DNA from: Chloroflexus sp.
Lineage (GTDB): Bacteria > Chloroflexota > Chloroflexia > Chloroflexales > Chloroflexaceae
Length of the DNA stretch: 64,000 nucleotides
Assembly: GCF_049970315.1 (NCBI RefSeq)
Contig: NZ_JBMFNE010000014.1
Span: 18,529-82,528, forward strand
Reading direction: 5' to 3'
The stretch's first letter is position 1; each line of letters begins with the position of its first letter. Shown here one piece after another: positions 18,676-41,758 of the stretch. A program made the position numbers and the translations under genes. The notes beneath the pieces were generated by a model. It saw nothing but the letters and a program-made list of their open reading frames with translations, was not told the origin of the DNA and made no database searches.

Positions 18676-19878
18676 TTACCACACTCGACAGATAAAACCT
18701 TTGAGATATTCAGCTTCAGGAAAGCTAAGTAAGACCGGATGATCGGGGGCTTGGGTAAGCCGCTCAAGGATTTGGACATCGCGCCCGGCATCAACAGCCG
18801 CGCCAAAGACGACTTTCTGAAAGAGATCGGCAGAGACAAGGCCAGAGCAGCTAAACGTCGCCAGAATGCCACCCGGTCGAATCAAGTGCAATGCTTGTAA
18901 GTTGATATCTTTGTAACCGCGGGTAGCCCGTTGCAGATGTGTTTGTTGATAAGCGAACTTCGGCGGATCGAGGATCACCACATCAAATTGACGCCGTTCA
19001 TTGCGGTACTGGCGTAGTATGTGAAAAGCATCGCCGACGACAAACTCTGCCGAAGTAGTGAGTTTATTGAGGCGCAGATTTTCACCGGCGAGTGCCAGCG
19101 CATCGGCACTAGCATCAACGAGGGTTATCCGACACGCCCCGGCACGGGCAGCGGCTAGGGCAAAGCCGCCAGCGTAAGAAAAGCAGTCGAGCACTTCTGC
19201 TCCGTTACAGTATGCACCAACCCGTGCGTGATTAATTGCTTGATCGAGATAAATCCCAGTCTTTTGGCCGGTTGTCACATCAGCAAACATGCGTAGACCG
19301 GTTGCCATCTGACCAAGGGCACTAATTGGACATATCGGCATGCGCGGTGGTTGTTCGCCCCAACGCAACCCGGCGACTATTGGTAAATCTTCCTTTTCGC
19401 GCACATCCGCATCGCTACGTTCGTAAATCCCGCGGGGGGCTAACAGATCAACGAGTGCGGCCACAACCTGCTCAGCACGTACTGCCATAGCTTGGGTAAG
19501 CAATTGAATGACCAGGTAGCAACCATACCGGTCAATAATCAGGCCGGGCAATCCATCCGACTCACTAAAGACGAGGCGGCAAGCGATCGCCGGATCGATT
19601 AACCAGCGCTCCCGGCCACTCACAGCGCGGGCAATTGTGTCACGCAGCCACGTCTCATCGAGAGGCTGGGTAGCGTCCCATGTTGCGAGACGTACTCGCA
19701 ACTGCGAGCTACTGCTCCAGAACCCACGTGCCAACCAACTGCCGTCTTGACTGTATACCTCGACTACCTCGCCGGGGGCAGGATTACCGCGCACACTGGC
19801 GATAGCGCCGGAAAATACCCAAGGATGTCGTTGAATGATCGGTCGTTCCCGACCTGAATGAACTGTAACAGTTACCAT
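18676..19878 (-). CDS. RlmI-like class I SAM-dependent rRNA methyltransferase (PUA + MTase)
   Basis: HPWVFSGAI, SESDGLPGLIIDRY, GQKTG, VLDCFSYAGGF, ILDPPKF. Confidence 0.87.
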   Translation of the reverse strand: MVTVTVHSGRERPIIQRHPWVFSGAIASVRGNPAPGEVVEVYSQDGSWLARGFWSSSSQLRVRLATWDATQPLDETWLRDTIARAVSGRERWLIDPAIACRLVFSESDGLPGLIIDRYGCYLVIQLLTQAMAVRAEQVVAALVDLLAPRGIYERSDADVREKEDLPIVAGLRWGEQPPRMPICPISALGQMATGLRMFADVTTGQKTGIYLDQAINHARVGAYCNGAEVLDCFSYAGGFALAAARAGACRITLVDASADALALAGENLRLNKLTTSAEFVVGDAFHILRQYRNERRQFDVVILDPPKFAYQQTHLQRATRGYKDINLQALHLIRPGGILATFSCSGLVSADLFQKVVFGAAVDAGRDVQILERLTQAPDHPVLLSFPEAEYLKGFICRVW

Positions 19879-19927: not shown

Positions 19928-20077
19928 CGGCAGTGCTGCGCCCGGCAGTGCTGCGCCCGGCGGTGCTGCCCCAGGACCGCCCGGCAGTGCTGCGCCCGGC
20001 GGTGCTGCCCCAGGACCGCACGGCAGTGCTGCGCCCGGCGGTGCTGCCCCAGGACCGCACGGCAGTGCTGCGCCCGG
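19928..20077. repeat. Intergenic tandem repeat (15-bp and 24-bp subunits, 39-bp period)
   Basis: A = CGGCAGTGCTGCGCC five times; B = CGGCGGTGCTGCCCCAGGACCGC(A/C) three times; order A A B A B A B A. Confidence 0.92.
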
Positions 20078-20157
20078 AAGATTACATTACGCAACACCGG
20101 ATTCATCAATGTTTGCTATGATAGACATATCACCGAACATTGCCAATAGGAGGAACT

Positions 20158-21138
20158 ATGCAATACACCCGCTTCGGCACAACCGGTATGCACGTCTCGC
20201 GGATCTGTCTCGGCTGTATGAGCTATGGTTCGCCGACATGGCGCGAATGGGTGCTCGATGAAGCCGCTAGTCGTCCATTTATCTTTCGCGCCTTAGAATT
20301 GGGGATCAACTTTTTCGATACTGCCGATATGTACTCGCTGGGGATGAGTGAAGAAATTCTCGGTCGTGCCATCCGCGATTCTGGGGTACGTCGCGATGAG
20401 TTGGTTATTGCAACCAAAGTTTATCAGCCGATGAGCGATCGCCCGAACGATCGCGGTCTTTCCCGCAAACATATTATGCAGGCAATTGACGCCTCTCTGC
20501 ACCGATTAGGGATGGATTATGTCGATCTGTACCAGATTCATCGCTGGGATTACGAAACACCCATTGAAGAGACGCTGGAAGCGCTGAACGATGTTGTGCG
20601 CGCCGGAAAAGCTCTCTATATCGGTGCATCGAGTATGTTTGCGTGGCAATTAGCCAAGGCCTTATGTATACAAGAACGACGCGGTTGGGCACGGTTCGTT
20701 TCGATGCAAAACCATCTCAACCTCGTCTACCGTGAAGAAGAGCGTGAGATGCTCCCGCTATGTCGTGATGCGGGACTAGCAGTGATTCCATGGAGTCCAC
20801 TGGCACGTGGTTTCTTAGCCGGTAATCGGCCACAAGGTACCGGCGCTGCGACGGTGCGTGGTCGCTCAGATACCATCTCGCACGCGATGTACGATGCCAG
20901 CGATTATGTAATTGTCGAGCGGGTGAGTGAGATTGCTCGGGAGCGCGGGGTGAGCAATGCCCAGATCGCGCTGGCATGGCTGCTCCACAAACCCGAAGTG
21001 ACGGCACCGATTATCGGGGCAACTAAGATGTATCAGCTCGAAGAGGCAGTCGCAGCCCTCGAAATCCAGCTCACACCGGAAGAAATTCAGCGATTAGAAG
21101 AGCCGTATCGGCCTAAACCGATCCGGGGGCATGCGTAA
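20158..21138 (+). CDS. Aldo/keto reductase
   Basis: VSRICLGCMSYG, FFDTADMY, IATKV, DLYQIHRWD, IPWSPLARG. RBS AGGAGG. Confidence 0.92.
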   Translation: MQYTRFGTTGMHVSRICLGCMSYGSPTWREWVLDEAASRPFIFRALELGINFFDTADMYSLGMSEEILGRAIRDSGVRRDELVIATKVYQPMSDRPNDRGLSRKHIMQAIDASLHRLGMDYVDLYQIHRWDYETPIEETLEALNDVVRAGKALYIGASSMFAWQLAKALCIQERRGWARFVSMQNHLNLVYREEEREMLPLCRDAGLAVIPWSPLARGFLAGNRPQGTGAATVRGRSDTISHAMYDASDYVIVERVSEIARERGVSNAQIALAWLLHKPEVTAPIIGATKMYQLEEAVAALEIQLTPEEIQRLEEPYRPKPIRGHA

Positions 21139-21150
21139 GCAGAGTAATCT

Positions 21151-22152
21151 ATGACAGCTCGTATTGATGTGAAGCCGGTAGCCATCTTGACAGCTCGTCA
21201 ACACATCGCCGGTATTGTCCAACCTACGCCACTTGAGTTGAGTCGGCCACTGAGTACGTTGTTAGGCGCTGAAGTGTGGCTCAAACTTGAATTAGCGCAG
21301 GTGACCGGTAGTTTTAAACTACGTGGTGCCGCGAATGTACTACGCCAGTTACCGCCCAATGTGTATGTGGTTGCGTGTTCGGCCGGGAACCATGCTCTTG
21401 GCGTCGCCCACGCATCAGCACTGACCGGCCATGCCGCTACACTAGTTGTGCCGGCGACAGCTTCACCGGCCAAGATCGCTGGGTTGTATCGTTATCCGGT
21501 AGATTTACGCTTGCACGGCCAAAGCTACGATGAAGCTGAAGCTGAAGCATTACGGCTGGCCAAAGTGCATGGTTGGTATTTTATCTCACCCTACAACGAT
21601 CCGATGGTCATTGCCGGGCAAGGCACATTAGCGGTAGAAGTGTGGGAAACGTTACCCAACGTTGAGGTGTTGGTCGTCGCCGTCGGTGGTGGTGGTCTGG
21701 CGAGCGGTGTTGGTCTATGGGCAAAAGCTATCAATCCACAGGTGCGCATCATTGGAGTCCAGGCGGCAGCGTCCGCGGCAATGGCAGCAGCCTTACGGGC
21801 CGGACGTGTTGTCCCGATACCTGATGGACCAACATTAGCCGATGGGTTGGCCGGTGGGTTGGAAGCTGATACGATCACGTTGCCGATATTACAGCAAGTG
21901 CTCGATGAGGTAGTATGCGTTGATGAAGCGGCAATTATGCAGGCAATGCATTGGTTGTTCGTCGAGCATCACCTCATTGTCGAGGGGAGTGGAGCTGTGC
22001 CGTTGGCAGCGTTACTCTCCGGCCAAATCGGCGATTTGCAAGGACGGCGAGTCGTGGTGTTGCTCTGCGGGCGAAACGTTGCCGCCGAGACGTGGCAGCA
22101 TGTGATAGCAACGGTATCAGGTGAAGCAGGAAGGCCACGTGCAGCAACGTGA
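21151..22152 (+). CDS. PLP-dependent threonine/serine dehydratase family
   Basis: GSFKLRGA, CSAGNHA, GQGT, VGGGGL, EGSGAV. Confidence 0.88.
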   Translation: MTARIDVKPVAILTARQHIAGIVQPTPLELSRPLSTLLGAEVWLKLELAQVTGSFKLRGAANVLRQLPPNVYVVACSAGNHALGVAHASALTGHAATLVVPATASPAKIAGLYRYPVDLRLHGQSYDEAEAEALRLAKVHGWYFISPYNDPMVIAGQGTLAVEVWETLPNVEVLVVAVGGGGLASGVGLWAKAINPQVRIIGVQAAASAAMAAALRAGRVVPIPDGPTLADGLAGGLEADTITLPILQQVLDEVVCVDEAAIMQAMHWLFVEHHLIVEGSGAVPLAALLSGQIGDLQGRRVVVLLCGRNVAAETWQHVIATVSGEAGRPRAAT

Positions 22153-22241
22153 ACCGCGAAAGCACCATTTCCGTACCGACGAGATAATTGTTCGTGGCGA
22201 CACGTGGCTTATGATCAGCCCAAAGACTGAGGAAACCCACA

Positions 22242-22270
22242 TTGACAATCGTGAAACTGCGTGTTATGCT
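22242..22270 (+). promoter_or_regulatory. Sigma70-type promoter
   Basis: TTGACA, 17 bp spacer, TATGCT. Confidence 0.7.
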
Positions 22271-22314
22271 GCACGAGCAAGCATTAACGTCTATTCTGGT
22301 CAAAGGAGGAGCGC

Positions 22315-22407
22315 ATGCCACTCATCAGCGATAGAACCCCAACGATTGTTGTGATGGTACTGTGCGACTCCATTGATGCAGGAGGGGCTTCACACAGCAC
22401 AGGCTAA
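22315..22407 (+). CDS. 30-aa leader peptide or small protein (absent from the ORF track)
   Basis: AAGGAGG RBS, then ATG...TAA encoding MPLISDRTPTIVVMVLCDSIDAGGASHSTG. Confidence 0.55.
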   Translation: MPLISDRTPTIVVMVLCDSIDAGGASHSTG

Positions 22408-22428
22408 ACAGGCTAACCTGTGATACCG

Positions 22429-22505
22429 ACGGGCTGTGGGAAGCTGCTAAGCGCCTACAGCCCGTTACTTATTTGGGCTGTGGCGTCAGCAACCACAGCC
22501 TTTTT
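22429..22505 (+). terminator. Tandem hairpins, the second an intrinsic terminator (attenuator-like)
   Basis: ACGGGCTGTGGG / CCTACAGCCCGT, then GGCTGTGG / CCACAGCC followed by TTTTT. Confidence 0.7.
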
Positions 22506-22573
22506 ATTCCCTCCGCACAATGAAGTCGAATGGCACTGAGGCAGACGGGTACTGAGAACGAGGATTGCTAACG

Positions 22574-22837
22574 ATGACAGATCATCAGGCTATCACCACC
22601 GCCGTCCATCAAACGCGACCAATTGTTGCGGAGGGAACCATCATGATTATTCTAGAGCGTGACGGCTCGCTAACGTATCATCCGCCCAAAACGGGGCAAC
22701 CGCGATCGGCGCACACGACGCTGAAGGCGGCTACCGCCGCAGAGCTGCCGTCACCGTCGTTGATCGAGCGGATTATTAGTGTGGCATTCGATCTCTTGGG
22801 AGTACATCGGCTGGAGGTGCGCATTGATGAATCGTAA
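22574..22837 (+). CDS. Hypothetical protein (about 87 aa)
   Basis: ORF overlaps the rsgA start and contains its RBS (GGAGG at 22813-22817). Confidence 0.6.
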   Translation: MTDHQAITTAVHQTRPIVAEGTIMIILERDGSLTYHPPKTGQPRSAHTTLKAATAAELPSPSLIERIISVAFDLLGVHRLEVRIDES

Positions 22838-23807
22838 AGCAGCCGCTGTGGAGATCGAGCAAACCGTATCGGCGCCGGAGACCAAGACTGGCCGTCTGAT
22901 CGGAACGGTATTGCGGGCGCAGAGTGGCTTTTTCTGGGTACTGACCGAACAAGGTCTGCTCGAATGCCGCTTGCGTGGTCGCTTGAAAAAGGAGCGTCAG
23001 GCAACCGACCTGGTCGTGATCGGTGATCAGGTTGAAGTGGTTTTGGTCGGTTATGGGCAAGGTGCTATCGAGGCGGTTTTGCCGCGGCGCAGTCAGTTGG
23101 CTCGGCGGGCTGCCGGTTCACGCGGCGCGTACAAAGAGGACGTCATCGTTGCCAACGTCGATCAAGTGTTGTTGGTCTTTGCGTGCGCTAAACCGGAGTT
23201 TACCCCGCGTATGCTCGACCGCTATCTGGTCATCTGTGAACACAGCGAACTACCGGCAATCATTGTGGCGACCAAAATCGATCTCGTCGGGCGTGAAGTC
23301 GCTGAGTCGCTGTTCAGACCGTATGAACAGATCGGCTACCCGGTCGTGTATACGAGTACCATCAGCGGCGAAGGGATTGCCGACCTGCGCGATCGGCTCA
23401 TCGGCAAGATTAGCGTTGTCACCGGTAAGTCAGGAGTTGGCAAAAGCAGCCTGCTCAACGCGATCCAGCCCGGTCTCAATTTGCGCACCGGTGAGGTGAG
23501 TGAGCGCCTCACCAAAGGGCGCCATACGACGACTGTCGCCGAACTCATTCCCCTTACCATGCCGGGAGGTGGCTATGTCGCCGATACACCGGGCATTCGT
23601 GAGATCGGGTTGTGGAAACTGCCGGCGCGCGATTTGGCATGGTGTTTTCGCGAATTCCGTCCCTTTCTCCGCGATTGCTACTTTGCCGGTTGTACCCATT
23701 TGCATGAACCTAACTGTGCAGTACGCGCTGCGGTCGAGCGGGGAGAAATCACGCCTGAGCGCTACGATAGTTATGTTCGGTTGATGAACAGTGATGAGGA
23801 AGGGTAG
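22827..23807 (+). CDS. rsgA: Ribosome small-subunit-dependent GTPase A
   Basis: OB fold, TKID, GKSGVGKSS, GRHTTT, DTPG, CxFxxCxHxxEPxC zinc finger. Confidence 0.93.
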   Translation: MNRKAAAVEIEQTVSAPETKTGRLIGTVLRAQSGFFWVLTEQGLLECRLRGRLKKERQATDLVVIGDQVEVVLVGYGQGAIEAVLPRRSQLARRAAGSRGAYKEDVIVANVDQVLLVFACAKPEFTPRMLDRYLVICEHSELPAIIVATKIDLVGREVAESLFRPYEQIGYPVVYTSTISGEGIADLRDRLIGKISVVTGKSGVGKSSLLNAIQPGLNLRTGEVSERLTKGRHTTTVAELIPLTMPGGGYVADTPGIREIGLWKLPARDLAWCFREFRPFLRDCYFAGCTHLHEPNCAVRAAVERGEITPERYDSYVRLMNSDEEG

Positions 23808-23825: not shown

Positions 23826-24398
23826 TTGACGATGAACGCCCACCCACAAACGCGACCGGTCGTTGTAGCCGGTGAGCGGGTCTTTCTGAGCCATATCTTC
23901 GCCGATGATGCACCACTGCTGGCACAGTGGTTTGCCGATCTGGAATTCACTGCTCTGTTAGGCCAACAGGGGTACAGTTACACCCTCGAACAAGAACAGC
24001 AGTGGATTAATGCAAACGCCATAGCCAAAGACGATCGGCGTACTTTTACGATAATACTGCGTGACGGTGAGCGGCTGATCGGCACATGTAGTTTGTTTCG
24101 TATCAACCTACTCCACGGCATTGCCGAACTGGGCATCGCTATTTGTGATAAAACGGTGTGGGGGCAAGGTTGTGGACGTGAAGCGGTTCGTTTGTTAGTC
24201 GATTACGGGTTTCGCTATCTCAACCTTTATAACATCTCGTTGTGGGTGTATGCGTTCAACGAGCGGGCGTACCGGGCCTATGTGCGGGCCGGCTTTCGCG
24301 AAGTGGGCCGGTTACGTGGAGCTATCATGCTAGATGGGCGTCGTTACGATCGTATTCTGATGGAAATAACACGCGATGATCGCATAAGTGTTGGATAA
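23826..24398 (+). CDS. GNAT N-acetyltransferase (RimJ/RimL family)
   Basis: AELGIAI...WGQGCGREA...FNERAYRAYVRAGF. Confidence 0.85.
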   Translation: MTMNAHPQTRPVVVAGERVFLSHIFADDAPLLAQWFADLEFTALLGQQGYSYTLEQEQQWINANAIAKDDRRTFTIILRDGERLIGTCSLFRINLLHGIAELGIAICDKTVWGQGCGREAVRLLVDYGFRYLNLYNISLWVYAFNERAYRAYVRAGFREVGRLRGAIMLDGRRYDRILMEITRDDRISVG

Positions 24399-24399
24399 A

Positions 24400-24615
24400 C
24401 ACAGCGGTATGACATATCCTGTTGAACTACTTGTTTCACGGCCTCGATCAGTTCTTGGTGGTCTTTGCGGTTTGATCGCAAATGTTGCGCCCATCTACAA
24501 CCGGGATGGAGTGGGTTCCATAGAGAACACTGTTGATTGTACCGCCCTTTACCGGGATCGTGGTTGCCAAAACCGGTTACGATTGTATGCCAAATTGGAG
24601 AAAACTCAGTTCGCG
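24400..24615 (-). pseudogene. C-terminal fragment of an Eco29kI-family (GIY-YIG) restriction endonuclease
   Basis: FSPIWHTIVTGFGNHDPGKGRYNQQCSLWNPLHPGCRWA resembles the family C-terminal P-W-(N)-x-x-x-(D)-GFGNH-x-PG...W-x-x-x-HPG pattern. The GIY-YIG N-terminal half is absent. Confidence 0.65.
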
Positions 24616-24949
24616 CATTGTCATTGTACGGTAGAATGCTCGAACGTCTTCCCACACCTGCGGACATACGTTCCGGGATGAGTCGCACGCAGAGAAGATT
24701 CGCTCGCTGCCATACGGAAGGTGGTAATGAGTTCAGGACAATAGCGCACGTTCCGTTCAACAGCCGGGCTAAACAATGGGAGACGTGAATAAAAACCCGC
24801 AGGTGGTTGGATATTGATGCCGTCAGGCAATGCCTAATCTCCTCACCATTTAAAAATATACGAACAACGGATACGGTACGGCGATGCGCTTCAACCGCCG
24901 ACGTTTCTGTTGCCGCTGCTACACGAGCTAGATAAACATGAAAAGCGCT

Positions 24950-25250
24950 ACACTTTGTTTTTGCCGCGAGGGTAGCACAGGGGTTAATATCAAACTCGAT
25001 ACCATTGAAGCTGTTCCGTAATCCCTCAACGAGGGTTGTTCCAACACCGGCAAATGGATCAAGTATCGTTGCGTGGTAGTTGATGTTAGTTGAGATATAG
25101 TATCGTAATATGTCGGTCACGAAGCCGGTAAAGAATCCGGCGATCCAAGGTACCCAACGGAGGATCGCATTATGTTGGTTCTGGGCAAAAGTTGAGTCGT
25201 GGAACAGGGACGTGCGTGGTGTGAGGTGGAAGGTAGATCATTGGATCACC
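24950..25250 (-). pseudogene. N-terminal fragment of an amino (N4-C/N6-A) DNA methyltransferase
   Basis: STFAQN...RWVPWIAGF...ILDPFAGVGTTLVE...EFDINP...AAKTK. No in-frame ATG, and no catalytic motif IV downstream. Confidence 0.65.
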
Positions 25251-40915: not shown

Positions 40916-41758
40916 TTACGGTTGCGACCGAGATTGGTCGTTCCGTCGCCGACGCGGATGGTACCGCTGTTCAAGGCTTAAACGGCGGTAATCACCCGCC
41001 TCAATAATGATGCGTTCCCGGCAGATGGCAGCATCAAACATCCGGGAAAGGATGCGCGGATCGATATCCTTCGGGTCACGATTACTGGTGATCACCGTCG
41101 GTAGAGCATAATTATACCGATGGTTCATGATCTGGTAAAGTTTTTCGCGCGCCCACGGCGTGGTGTTTTCGGTGCCGAGATCGTCGAGGATCAAGAGAGC
41201 GACGTCCCGAACGAGTTCAAAGCGTTCGTCGTAGGCCGTCTCCGAATTCGGCCCGAAGGTCGACCGAAGATGATCGAGTAAGTCGGGCACGACGGTGAAT
41301 AACACCGGCATGTGCCGTTCGAGTGCCTCGTTGGCAATGGCTGCCGCCAGATGAGTCTTCCCACAGCCATAGCCGCCGAATAAGATCAGCCAACCTTGAG
41401 GGTTTTGCGCATATTCAAAAGCGCGGGCAAAGGCCCGTTGTACGCCGGGGACAGTGCGGTCAAAGTTGGCAAAGATCTTATCACGGAGTGGTGCGAGGTT
41501 CGAGAGCCGTTCCAGTTCTTCATAACGGCGACGCTCTTTTTCTGCCTGCTTACAGCGACAAGTGATTAATACGCCGAAGTTCGGATCTCCGTATCGCACA
41601 TCGAGCGTGTAATAGCCTGCTCCCCGACAAATCGGACACACCGACTCAGAGGTCGCTTTCGTCGCTTCCGCGGCGGAAGAGGTGTCCGAGTTGTCCGCCG
41701 GTATATTTTTCAATATCGATAGGTCGTCCGGCCTGATACGGCGTAGTTTCTCGTCCAT
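40916..41758 (-). CDS. DnaC/IstB-like ATP-binding helicase loader
   Basis: CPIC...C.C zinc motif, GGYGCGKTHLAAAI, LLILDDLG, TVITSN. SD GAGGTG upstream of the ATG at 41758. Confidence 0.85.
   Translation of the reverse strand: MDEKLRRIRPDDLSILKNIPADNSDTSSAAEATKATSESVCPICRGAGYYTLDVRYGDPNFGVLITCRCKQAEKERRRYEELERLSNLAPLRDKIFANFDRTVPGVQRAFARAFEYAQNPQGWLILFGGYGCGKTHLAAAIANEALERHMPVLFTVVPDLLDHLRSTFGPNSETAYDERFELVRDVALLILDDLGTENTTPWAREKLYQIMNHRYNYALPTVITSNRDPKDIDPRILSRMFDAAICRERIIIEAGDYRRLSLEQRYHPRRRRNDQSRSQP

Follow-up and report, generated by a model that had tools for sequence, protein, structure and literature searches.

A probable ribosome-mediated relay attenuator with two serial terminators upstream of the rsgA operon of Chloroflexus and related Chloroflexia

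What lies between a strong promoter and the first gene of the rsgA operon of Chloroflexus, and does it control the expression of that operon? This question arises from a short segment of the 64,000-nucleotide stretch of Chloroflexus DNA that was analyzed here as a whole (the window); positions are counted from its first nucleotide, and features are on the + strand unless stated otherwise. The operon consists of an ORF for an 87-aa protein (22574 to 22837), rsgA (22827 to 23807), the start of which overlaps the stop of the preceding ORF, and a gene for a GNAT acetyltransferase (23826 to 24398), with which the unit ends in the window. RsgA is a late 30S maturation GTPase, and the GNAT is of the RimJ/RimL type. 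The rsgA product matched the RsgA_GTPase (5e-56) and RsgA_N (5e-12) models and is 88% identical to RsgA of C. islandicus. The GNAT product belongs to Acetyltransf_3 (RimJ/RimL-like), and its similarities to AAC(6') and RimJ/RimL models are weak, all of them far under the cut-offs. The 87-aa protein had no match in Pfam or NCBIfam and no real similarity to the GNAT; its homologues are exclusively Chloroflexus hypothetical proteins, and its AlphaFold model has a pLDDT of 47.5. Just upstream of the promoter is the gene for a PLP-dependent enzyme (PALP). As set out below, the segment is probably a ribosome-mediated (leader-peptide) relay attenuator with two serial terminators that controls the 87-aa protein-rsgA-GNAT operon.

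The segment begins with a sigma-70-type promoter (22242 to 22270), in which TTGACA (22242 to 22247) is separated by 17 nt from TATGCT (22265 to 22270), the latter forming with the TG at 22262 to 22263 an extended -10 motif, TGnTATGCT. This promoter matches 10 of the 12 consensus positions and is the sole promoter-like site between 21500 and 24500; from its position, transcription is predicted to start at about 22277. A Shine-Dalgarno (SD) sequence, AAGGAGG (22303 to 22309), is located 5 nt 5' of the ATG at 22315 that opens an ORF of 30 aa (22315 to 22407; MPLISDRTPTIVVMVLCDSIDAGGASHSTG) with a TAA stop codon at 22405 to 22407. A sequence-only reading of this DNA had claimed a strong promoter, an AAGGAGG ribosome-binding site and this 30-aa ORF, and all of them were found where it had placed them. 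As in an attenuator, the ORF, equipped with an SD and a start codon, directly follows the promoter and precedes the structural genes, and it is presumably translated.

Downstream of the ORF are two hairpins. Hairpin T1 (22429 to 22474) is formed by segments 1 (22429 to 22440) and 2 (22454 to 22465), a 12-nt inverted repeat with 11 of 12 positions paired (92%), and has a U-rich tail, TTACTTATTT. Hairpin T2 (22475 to 22505) is formed by segments 3 (22475 to 22483) and 4 (22493 to 22501), which contain an inverted repeat (22476 to 22483 and 22493 to 22500) paired at all eight positions; TTTTT (22501 to 22505) comes next. The four segments, the 3' U-run and the pairings 1:2, 2:3 and 3:4 are present as the earlier reading had proposed. 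That T1 bears a U-rich tail of its own, giving two tandem terminators, had been missed, and T2 was missed by a simple terminator scan, because its loop is 9 nt long and the limit of the scan was 8. Two intrinsic terminators separate the leader ORF from the first structural gene, the arrangement found in attenuators. Segments 1 and 3 are identical in sequence, with a direct repeat of GGGCTGTGG at 22431 to 22439 and 22475 to 22483. As a consequence, segment 2 can also pair with segment 3, and a third, nested fold exists (1:4+2:3). The 2:3 duplex, which had been put forward as an antiterminator, has an energy of -17.4 kcal/mol (z = -4.3). The nested fold, another feature that had been overlooked, is the thermodynamic minimum free energy (MFE) structure in the window; its hairpin still precedes the U-run, and it too ends in a terminator.

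The element that would connect these hairpins to the leader ribosome is found in the ORF itself. Segment 0 (22387 to 22398; GCTTCACACAGC) covers the codons at the end of the leader (A S H S) and can base-pair with 22433 to 22444, in segment 1 and the T1 loop. A pairing of 8 of 9 nt between 22390 to 22398 and segment 1 had been described before; it exists, but is longer than claimed and forms a 12-nt inverted repeat (22387 to 22398 and 22433 to 22444) with 11 of 12 positions paired (92%). In the window, the 0:1 duplex has an energy of -25 kcal/mol (z = -3.1, p ~0.007). A small hairpin of CACAGG or ACAGG with CCTGTG (22398 to 22422) lies over the stop codon and just past it. The RNA from 22276 to 22510 folds with a z-score of -5.3, and none of 200 shuffled sequences was equally stable.

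With respect to known RNA classes, no tRNA or tmRNA was detected in the window, and the Rfam covariance models gave nothing relevant between 21000 and 24000 at E ≤ 10, the only match being to the lncRNA RMST_1 (21030 to 21092; E = 0.65), a chance match outside the element. A repeated or mobile element was considered and rejected, as GGCTGTGG units form hairpins nowhere else in the 64-kb window. On the minus strand, GCTGTGGGAAG also occurs near 41357, within a DnaC-like CDS, as a chance match.

The question of whether this architecture is particular to the window was addressed with 33 loci retrieved via RsgA. The leader architecture precedes the rsgA operon in 30 of these 33 Chloroflexia loci, which fall into five sequence clades (A to E, clade A being Chloroflexus); no such element was found in the Anaerolineae locus L032. 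The leader sequences are unalignable between some clades, and the four further clades are unalignable with Chloroflexus. Common to them is the succession of a TTGACA-17-TGnTAnnCT promoter, a 5' UTR, an SD, an ORF of 17 to 42 codons, a stop-codon hairpin, T1 and T2. The promoter is present in the 30 related loci as TTGACA-N17-TGnTA(T/C)xCT, and the SD is located 5 to 9 nt 5' of the ATG in all 30, as is an ORF of 17 to 42 aa, so that the leader ORF proposed earlier is indeed conserved as an ORF; frame +2 is likewise open in 16 of the 30 leaders. Clades A to C share a hairpin whose loop or 5' arm contains the stop codon, and the U tract of T1 is canonical in clades B, C, and E. Representatives of the five clades (L004, L011, L017, L025, and L027 for clades A, B, C, D, and E, respectively) had no Rfam match at E ≤ 1. 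In the 11 other Chloroflexus, the region from the promoter to the U-run is 70 to 79% identical, and conservation ends directly past the terminator. The ORF measures 30 to 32 aa in the 12 Chloroflexus, indels are in frame, and TAA, TAG or TGA occurs at one alignment column. Leader peptides end in ..LPTFRLLRS in an Oscillochloris/Chloroflexaceae clade, in ..HTAPIFRRLKR in Roseiflexus and its allies, and in ..SAHDPA in a two-member clade, whereas the peptide of the deep clade (E) is MMNTTALSSVNLIRLPR, with the element ending 10 to 31 nt before the rsgA start.

The same linkage was obtained in the opposite direction. A leader-peptide profile built from the 32- to 42-aa relatives retrieved 40 unannotated small proteins; relatives of the leader ORF are called hypothetical proteins in public data. 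Three of the 40, looked up by identity, are each encoded about 180 to 250 nt upstream of a small hypothetical gene, and the genes following these leaders are a small hypothetical gene, (an ABC ATPase gene), rsgA, a small ORF, the GNAT gene, and (an ABC-2 permease gene). The leader and the rsgA operon are thus linked whether the search starts from RsgA or from the leader peptide.

The earlier reading had named covariation as a check on the hairpins. We analyzed T1 and T2 in an alignment of 24 sequences from clades A to C with 500 column shuffles. T1 was 96.5% and T2 97.7% paired, and none of the 500 shuffles reached the covariation score. A total of nine pairs had changed on both sides (five in T1 and four in T2; for example, from U-A to C-G). 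Of the alternative helices, 2:3 was paired to 90.7% and contained an A.C mismatch in clades B and C, whereas 1:4 was 97.7% paired, retaining a wobble pair in these clades.

For the 0:1 duplex, the last 33 coding nucleotides were compared with the 5' arm and loop of T1, using dinucleotide shuffles. Its energy ranged from -21 to -31 kcal/mol in clades A to D, with z-scores of about -2 to -5 in clade A, clade D, and part of clade C, and it was no better than shuffled sequences in clades B and E. In the 12 Chloroflexus it is 92% paired, and both arms are nearly invariant; the genus thus shows conservation, not covariation. Among the conserved bases are a synonymous Ser position, where the only mismatch falls, and AAGC in the T1 loop. 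In clades B to D, the pairs flanking the CCCAC:GUGGG core change together (CUA/UAG, CUG/CGG, GCG/CG, and UUCUG/CAGA); the 7-bp core is 92 to 100% paired, and 8 of 500 shuffles reached its score. The element at the leader end had been proposed to act as a competitor, and in clades A to D the 3' end of the ORF does compete with segment 2 for segment 1. Segment 0 therefore mimics segment 2, the 3' arm of T1, which is a defining trait of attenuators. There are thus mutually exclusive helices (0:1 versus 1:2, and 2:3 versus 3:4), one arm of which is within reach of the leader ribosome; this pattern is weakly supported in clades B and E.

These data bear on a simpler view, in which the segment is an independent gene for a small protein or dual-function RNA, with its own promoter and tandem terminators, the operon is expressed through constitutive leakage past the terminators, and the complementarities result incidentally from repeated GGCYGYGG units. 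In accordance with this view, the conserved ORF has been called as a gene in public data, both hairpins make good terminators, and the equilibrium fold of the window terminates. However, the peptides are unrelated between clades (ASHSAG, PTFRRLKR, and LIRLPR), the conserved blocks coincide with RNA pairing partners and do not vary at synonymous sites, and the complementarity between ORF and T1 loop covaries; in addition, both search directions show strict linkage to rsgA, and there is no promoter-like site downstream. We consider this view quite unlikely. As for a peptide of the type I toxin or membrane micropeptide kind, no hydrophobic stretch of 18 or more residues was found in the leader peptides, which are polar or acidic at the C-terminus.

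A separate promoter past 22505 was the condition that the sequence-only reading had named as refuting control of the operon by the leader. A scan for consensus sigma-70 promoters between T2 and the next ORF, a gap of 10 to 83 nt, found none in 28 of 28 loci, and in clade E the 10 to 31 nt between T2 and rsgA leave no room for one. Metatranscriptome contigs from four runs, with their upstream ends at about 22048-22214, extend unbroken across the terminators into rsgA and the GNAT gene, and in two runs the contig that starts at 22214 had about 3.3 times the depth of the upstream contig. This pattern is weakly indicative, being compatible with the leader promoter as well as with read-through, since these are assembled contigs of flat depth that may contain DNA.

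A further layer of structure, also absent from the earlier reading, concerns initiation on the leader. In the fold of the window, an anti-SD sequence inside the ORF (22366 to 22375; GACTCCATTG) is paired to the SD region, closing a long 5' hairpin (about 22289 to 22388) that buries the leader AUG as well; the SD pairs with GACUCC. The anti-SD block is invariant across the 11 other Chloroflexus, third codon positions included. When the 5' hairpin of the window was projected on the Chloroflexus alignment, no signal was obtained (63.7% paired versus 62.1% in shuffled alignments), and the figures that follow rest instead on folds computed per sequence. The GGAG of the SD was in register with the CUCC of the anti-SD in the separately computed MFE structures of 10 of the 12 Chloroflexus, and in L005 and L008 the register moves to adjacent bases. 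In 30 of 30 leaders, folded independently, the SD-AUG region was paired with the distal ORF over 8 to 14 of 17 nt, with a mean of 11.5 as compared to 7.4 in shuffled sequences; sequestration is consistent over the leaders and weak for each leader alone against its shuffles. A conserved CCCTCC box (22509 to 22514), just 3' of the U-run, can pair either with GGAGGG (22381 to 22386) or with the leader SD; its pairing is 86% paired, and L005 has GAAGGG/CCCTTC.

How the competing helices might be resolved was assessed by folding. Between 22380 and 22501, three folds are isoenergetic, namely, T1+T2 (-53.3 kcal/mol), 0:1+2:3 (-52.0 kcal/mol), and 1:4+2:3 (-52.5 kcal/mol). In snapshots of the growing chain, 0:1 is the MFE structure once segment 1 is out (to 22446), and T1 overtakes it only after segment 2. 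Since the nested fold is the MFE structure at equilibrium and terminates, read-through must be a kinetic outcome. In clades A, B, C, and E, T1 follows the stop codon at a distance of about 20 nt, and a terminating ribosome would therefore mask segment 0 and not T1. The earlier proposal that a ribosome at the leader end favors termination was borne out in predicted folds: with the footprint at the stop codon blocked, T1+T2 formed in 22 of 23 leaders, the window folded as the nested 1:4+2:3, and all 23 leaders ended in a terminator hairpin. When 0:1 was enforced, T1 was lost everywhere, and most Chloroflexus then formed 2:3 and lost T2; in clade E, T2 remained intact with a perfect U tract. The antiterminated 0:1 state is the unconstrained MFE structure in L013, L022, and L026, and is within 0.7 to 1.6 kcal/mol of it in L014 and L020.

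Taking these folds as a guide, the attenuator may operate as follows. The strong promoter would yield leader RNA in which the distal part of the 30-aa ORF, once transcribed, would bury the SD and AUG in the long hairpin, so that a 30S subunit would have to load early. A ribosome at or near the leader stop would cover segment 0, and with segment 0 covered, 1:2 (T1) and 3:4 (T2) would form and transcription would end at the U tracts. With the ribosome absent, lagging or stalled upstream, 0:1 would pair as soon as segment 1 emerges, segment 2 would be left free to capture segment 3, segment 4 would stay single-stranded, and RNA polymerase would enter the operon. An untranslated or lagging leader would thus give read-through, and operon output would be higher when the leader is poorly translated, which agrees with feedback regulation of genes for 30S maturation. 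We infer from the structure and the gene content that leader translation promotes termination and that the physiological signal is ribosome status; the targets, RsgA and a RimJ/RimL-type GNAT, suggest feedback on translational capacity.

Classical attenuators sense the supply of an amino acid, and stalling at codons for a scarce amino acid, as in thr, ilv or his leaders, would equally cause read-through. Thr, Ile, and Val abound in the leaders of Chloroflexus (e.g., MILITNQDIMIATVVVMTNDS), and the PALP enzyme gene is just upstream. This gene is, however, upstream of the promoter and not downstream, the regulated genes (RsgA and GNAT) are not biosynthetic, and no run of a single codon is conserved within or between clades, which makes amino acid sensing extremely improbable. 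Very improbable, too, is a nascent-peptide arrest sensor of the TnaC/SpeFL type, in which C-terminal residues would stall the ribosome near the stop in response to a ligand and thereby set the fold. Conservation is indeed concentrated in the last 10 to 12 residues, with variable N-termini (GHTAPIFRRL in about 20 proteins; SDSAxxxxASHSAG). Yet these motifs are wholly different between clades, and the conserved codons are also conserved as nucleotides and overlap segment 0 and the anti-SD; constraints on these RNA pairing partners therefore explain them without a role for the peptide.

The attenuator could share its cis-logic with an antibiotic-sensing leader, in which an inhibitor-stalled ribosome frees segment 0 and the relay induces a protective operon composed of GNAT, RsgA, and, in Roseiflexus-type loci, a DrrAB-like exporter. 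These loci contain the leader, a hypothetical gene, a DrrA-like ABC ATPase gene, rsgA, the GNAT gene and a DrrB-like permease gene, and the weak resemblance of the GNAT to AAC(6') points in the same direction. A precedent is the bmrB-bmrCD system of Bacillus subtilis, where a leader ORF is combined with three alternative stem-loops, including an intrinsic terminator, and ribosome-targeting antibiotics induce expression in a manner that requires leader translation (PMC4191407). Like bmrB-bmrCD, the rsgA leader would be ribosome mediated, respond to impaired translation and be co-transcribed with the downstream genes (PMC4191407). In contrast, the bmrB terminator is inside the ORF, whereas the terminators of the rsgA leader are about 20 nt or more past the stop codon, and the bmrB target is a multidrug ABC transporter as opposed to rsgA/GNAT, to which only Roseiflexus-type operons add a DrrAB-like transporter (PMC4191407). 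ABC genes are missing from the window and from all Chloroflexus operons; the only constant partner over the five clades is rsgA, which in clade E directly follows the leader; and no drug-specific stalling motif is recognizable. Antibiotic sensing is for these reasons unlikely.

Returning to ribosome status as the signal, a more specific form of the attenuator model is possible, although we put it forward tentatively: the leader may be a homeostatic gauge of initiation-competent 30S subunits, in which timely loading would cause termination and too few mature 30S subunits would cause relay antitermination. The perfect SD would be open for only about one second, until the distal ORF folds back, so that the outcome would depend on how probable it is for a mature 30S subunit to load within that interval. 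More speculatively, the 87-aa protein might be an autoregulator that binds the repeated GGCYGYGG hairpins. It follows the leader in clades A to D, always after leaders of the GGCYGYGG type, and is absent where the hairpin sequences differ (clade E).

Textbook cases of leader-peptide attenuation are the amino acid operons of Proteobacteria, together with some resistance genes in Firmicutes. A close structural parallel is the his leader of Salmonella and E. coli (also trp, thr, ilv, and leu), which likewise has a promoter-proximal short ORF, the 3' part of which is an arm in a chain of mutually exclusive helices, and an intrinsic terminator. As in the rsgA leader, more than four segments form a relay in his (A:B, C:D, and E:F versus B:C and D:E), and the terminator fold of his-type leaders is not less stable than the antiterminator, making the outcome kinetic. 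Unlike this class, the rsgA leader has no regulatory codon run, carries two U-tract terminators in series, sequesters its SD and AUG, and targets ribosome-maturation genes in Chloroflexia; furthermore, its untranslated state is predicted to read through, whereas that of trp terminates. In the E. coli pyrBI leader, termination depends on how far the first ribosome is behind RNA polymerase and involves no specific regulatory codons, which resembles the rsgA leader, but there a close ribosome prevents the terminator hairpin, whereas here the terminating ribosome would stop short of T1 and mask an antiterminator arm. The L20/infC, L10, and S15 leaders (Rfam) similarly exert feedback in cis, in the 5' region, on genes of the translation apparatus, but they are protein-binding RNA mimics without a sensing ORF.

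Full-text literature searches and Rfam yielded no description of a leader attenuator for a ribosome-assembly GTPase or of one in Chloroflexia. The statement of the sequence-only reading that no equivalent has been described holds for the rsgA element itself and not for the mechanism class, which is well known (his/trp-type and bmrB-bmrCD; PMC4191407). New in the rsgA element, which has the structural hallmarks of the his/trp type, are the targets and the phylum; its predicted polarity is opposite to that of trp. If the direction of the switch is true, this compact element (~230 nt), kept across the whole class, would couple the synthesis of 30S maturation factors to translational capacity directly and without a protein; how assembly factors are matched to ribosome demand is still poorly understood. 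Natural variants of the element contain one terminator, two terminators or extra hairpins, and such terminator and hairpin variants make the model easy to test. One locus, L034, was left out when the picture was built; its promoter, SD, ORF, T1, and T2 are all present, and its unconstrained MFE structure is the 0:1 fold.

Around the stop codon of the 30-aa leader ORF (22315-22407), the repeat search of the window revealed a direct duplication of ACAGGCTAA at positions 22399-22416 that includes the stop codon itself. An exact duplication of this type at the leader stop was absent from all other Chloroflexus loci compared. Immediately 3' of the U-run that ends the second terminator hairpin, T2 (22475-22505), lies a CCCTCC box (22509-22514) that is kept across Chloroflexus. 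This box is complementary to GGAGGG at 22381-22386, directly 5' of segment 0 (22387-22398), or to the leader Shine-Dalgarno sequence, and may pair with either; in the Chloroflexus locus L005 the box pair takes the form GAAGGG/CCCTTC.

The hairpins varied among clades. Two additional hairpins were observed between the leader stop and the first terminator hairpin, T1 (22429-22474 in the window), in the two-member clade of L025 (1834-1970) and L026 (1827-1960), where the distance from stop to T1 is ~89 nt, whereas it is ~20 nt elsewhere. In the Oscillochloris-type clade (L012, L015, and L021), T2, the second hairpin, lacks a U tract, and termination can occur at T1 only.

Downstream, the rsgA start codon (ATG at 22827) is located inside the 3' end of the 87-aa ORF (stop codon at 22835-37), and this overlap (22827-22837) suggests that both genes are translationally coupled. 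In Roseiflexus-type operons (L017, 1810-5465; L036), rsgA and the GNAT gene are interspersed with two ABC transporter genes, one for an ATPase resembling DrrA and one for an ABC-2 permease resembling DrrB; each of these two transporter proteins also matches the model of the ribosome-associated ATPase RbbA, both below threshold. A Chloroflexia-type rsgA locus and leader were also present in two metagenome-assembled genomes titled "uncultured Klebsiella sp." (L027 and L028), bins that are probably mislabelled.

Elsewhere in the window, a 39-bp tandem repeat (19939-20077; 3.6 copies, 99% matches) is intergenic and is flanked by two divergently oriented genes, at 18676-19878 (-) and 20140-21138 (+). 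Contig comparison showed that 292 bp at 24544-24837 are missing from the strain in four metatranscriptome runs; this segment lies within a minus-strand ORF (24344-25120) that carries an N-terminal DNA-methyltransferase-like motif, DPFAGVGTT.
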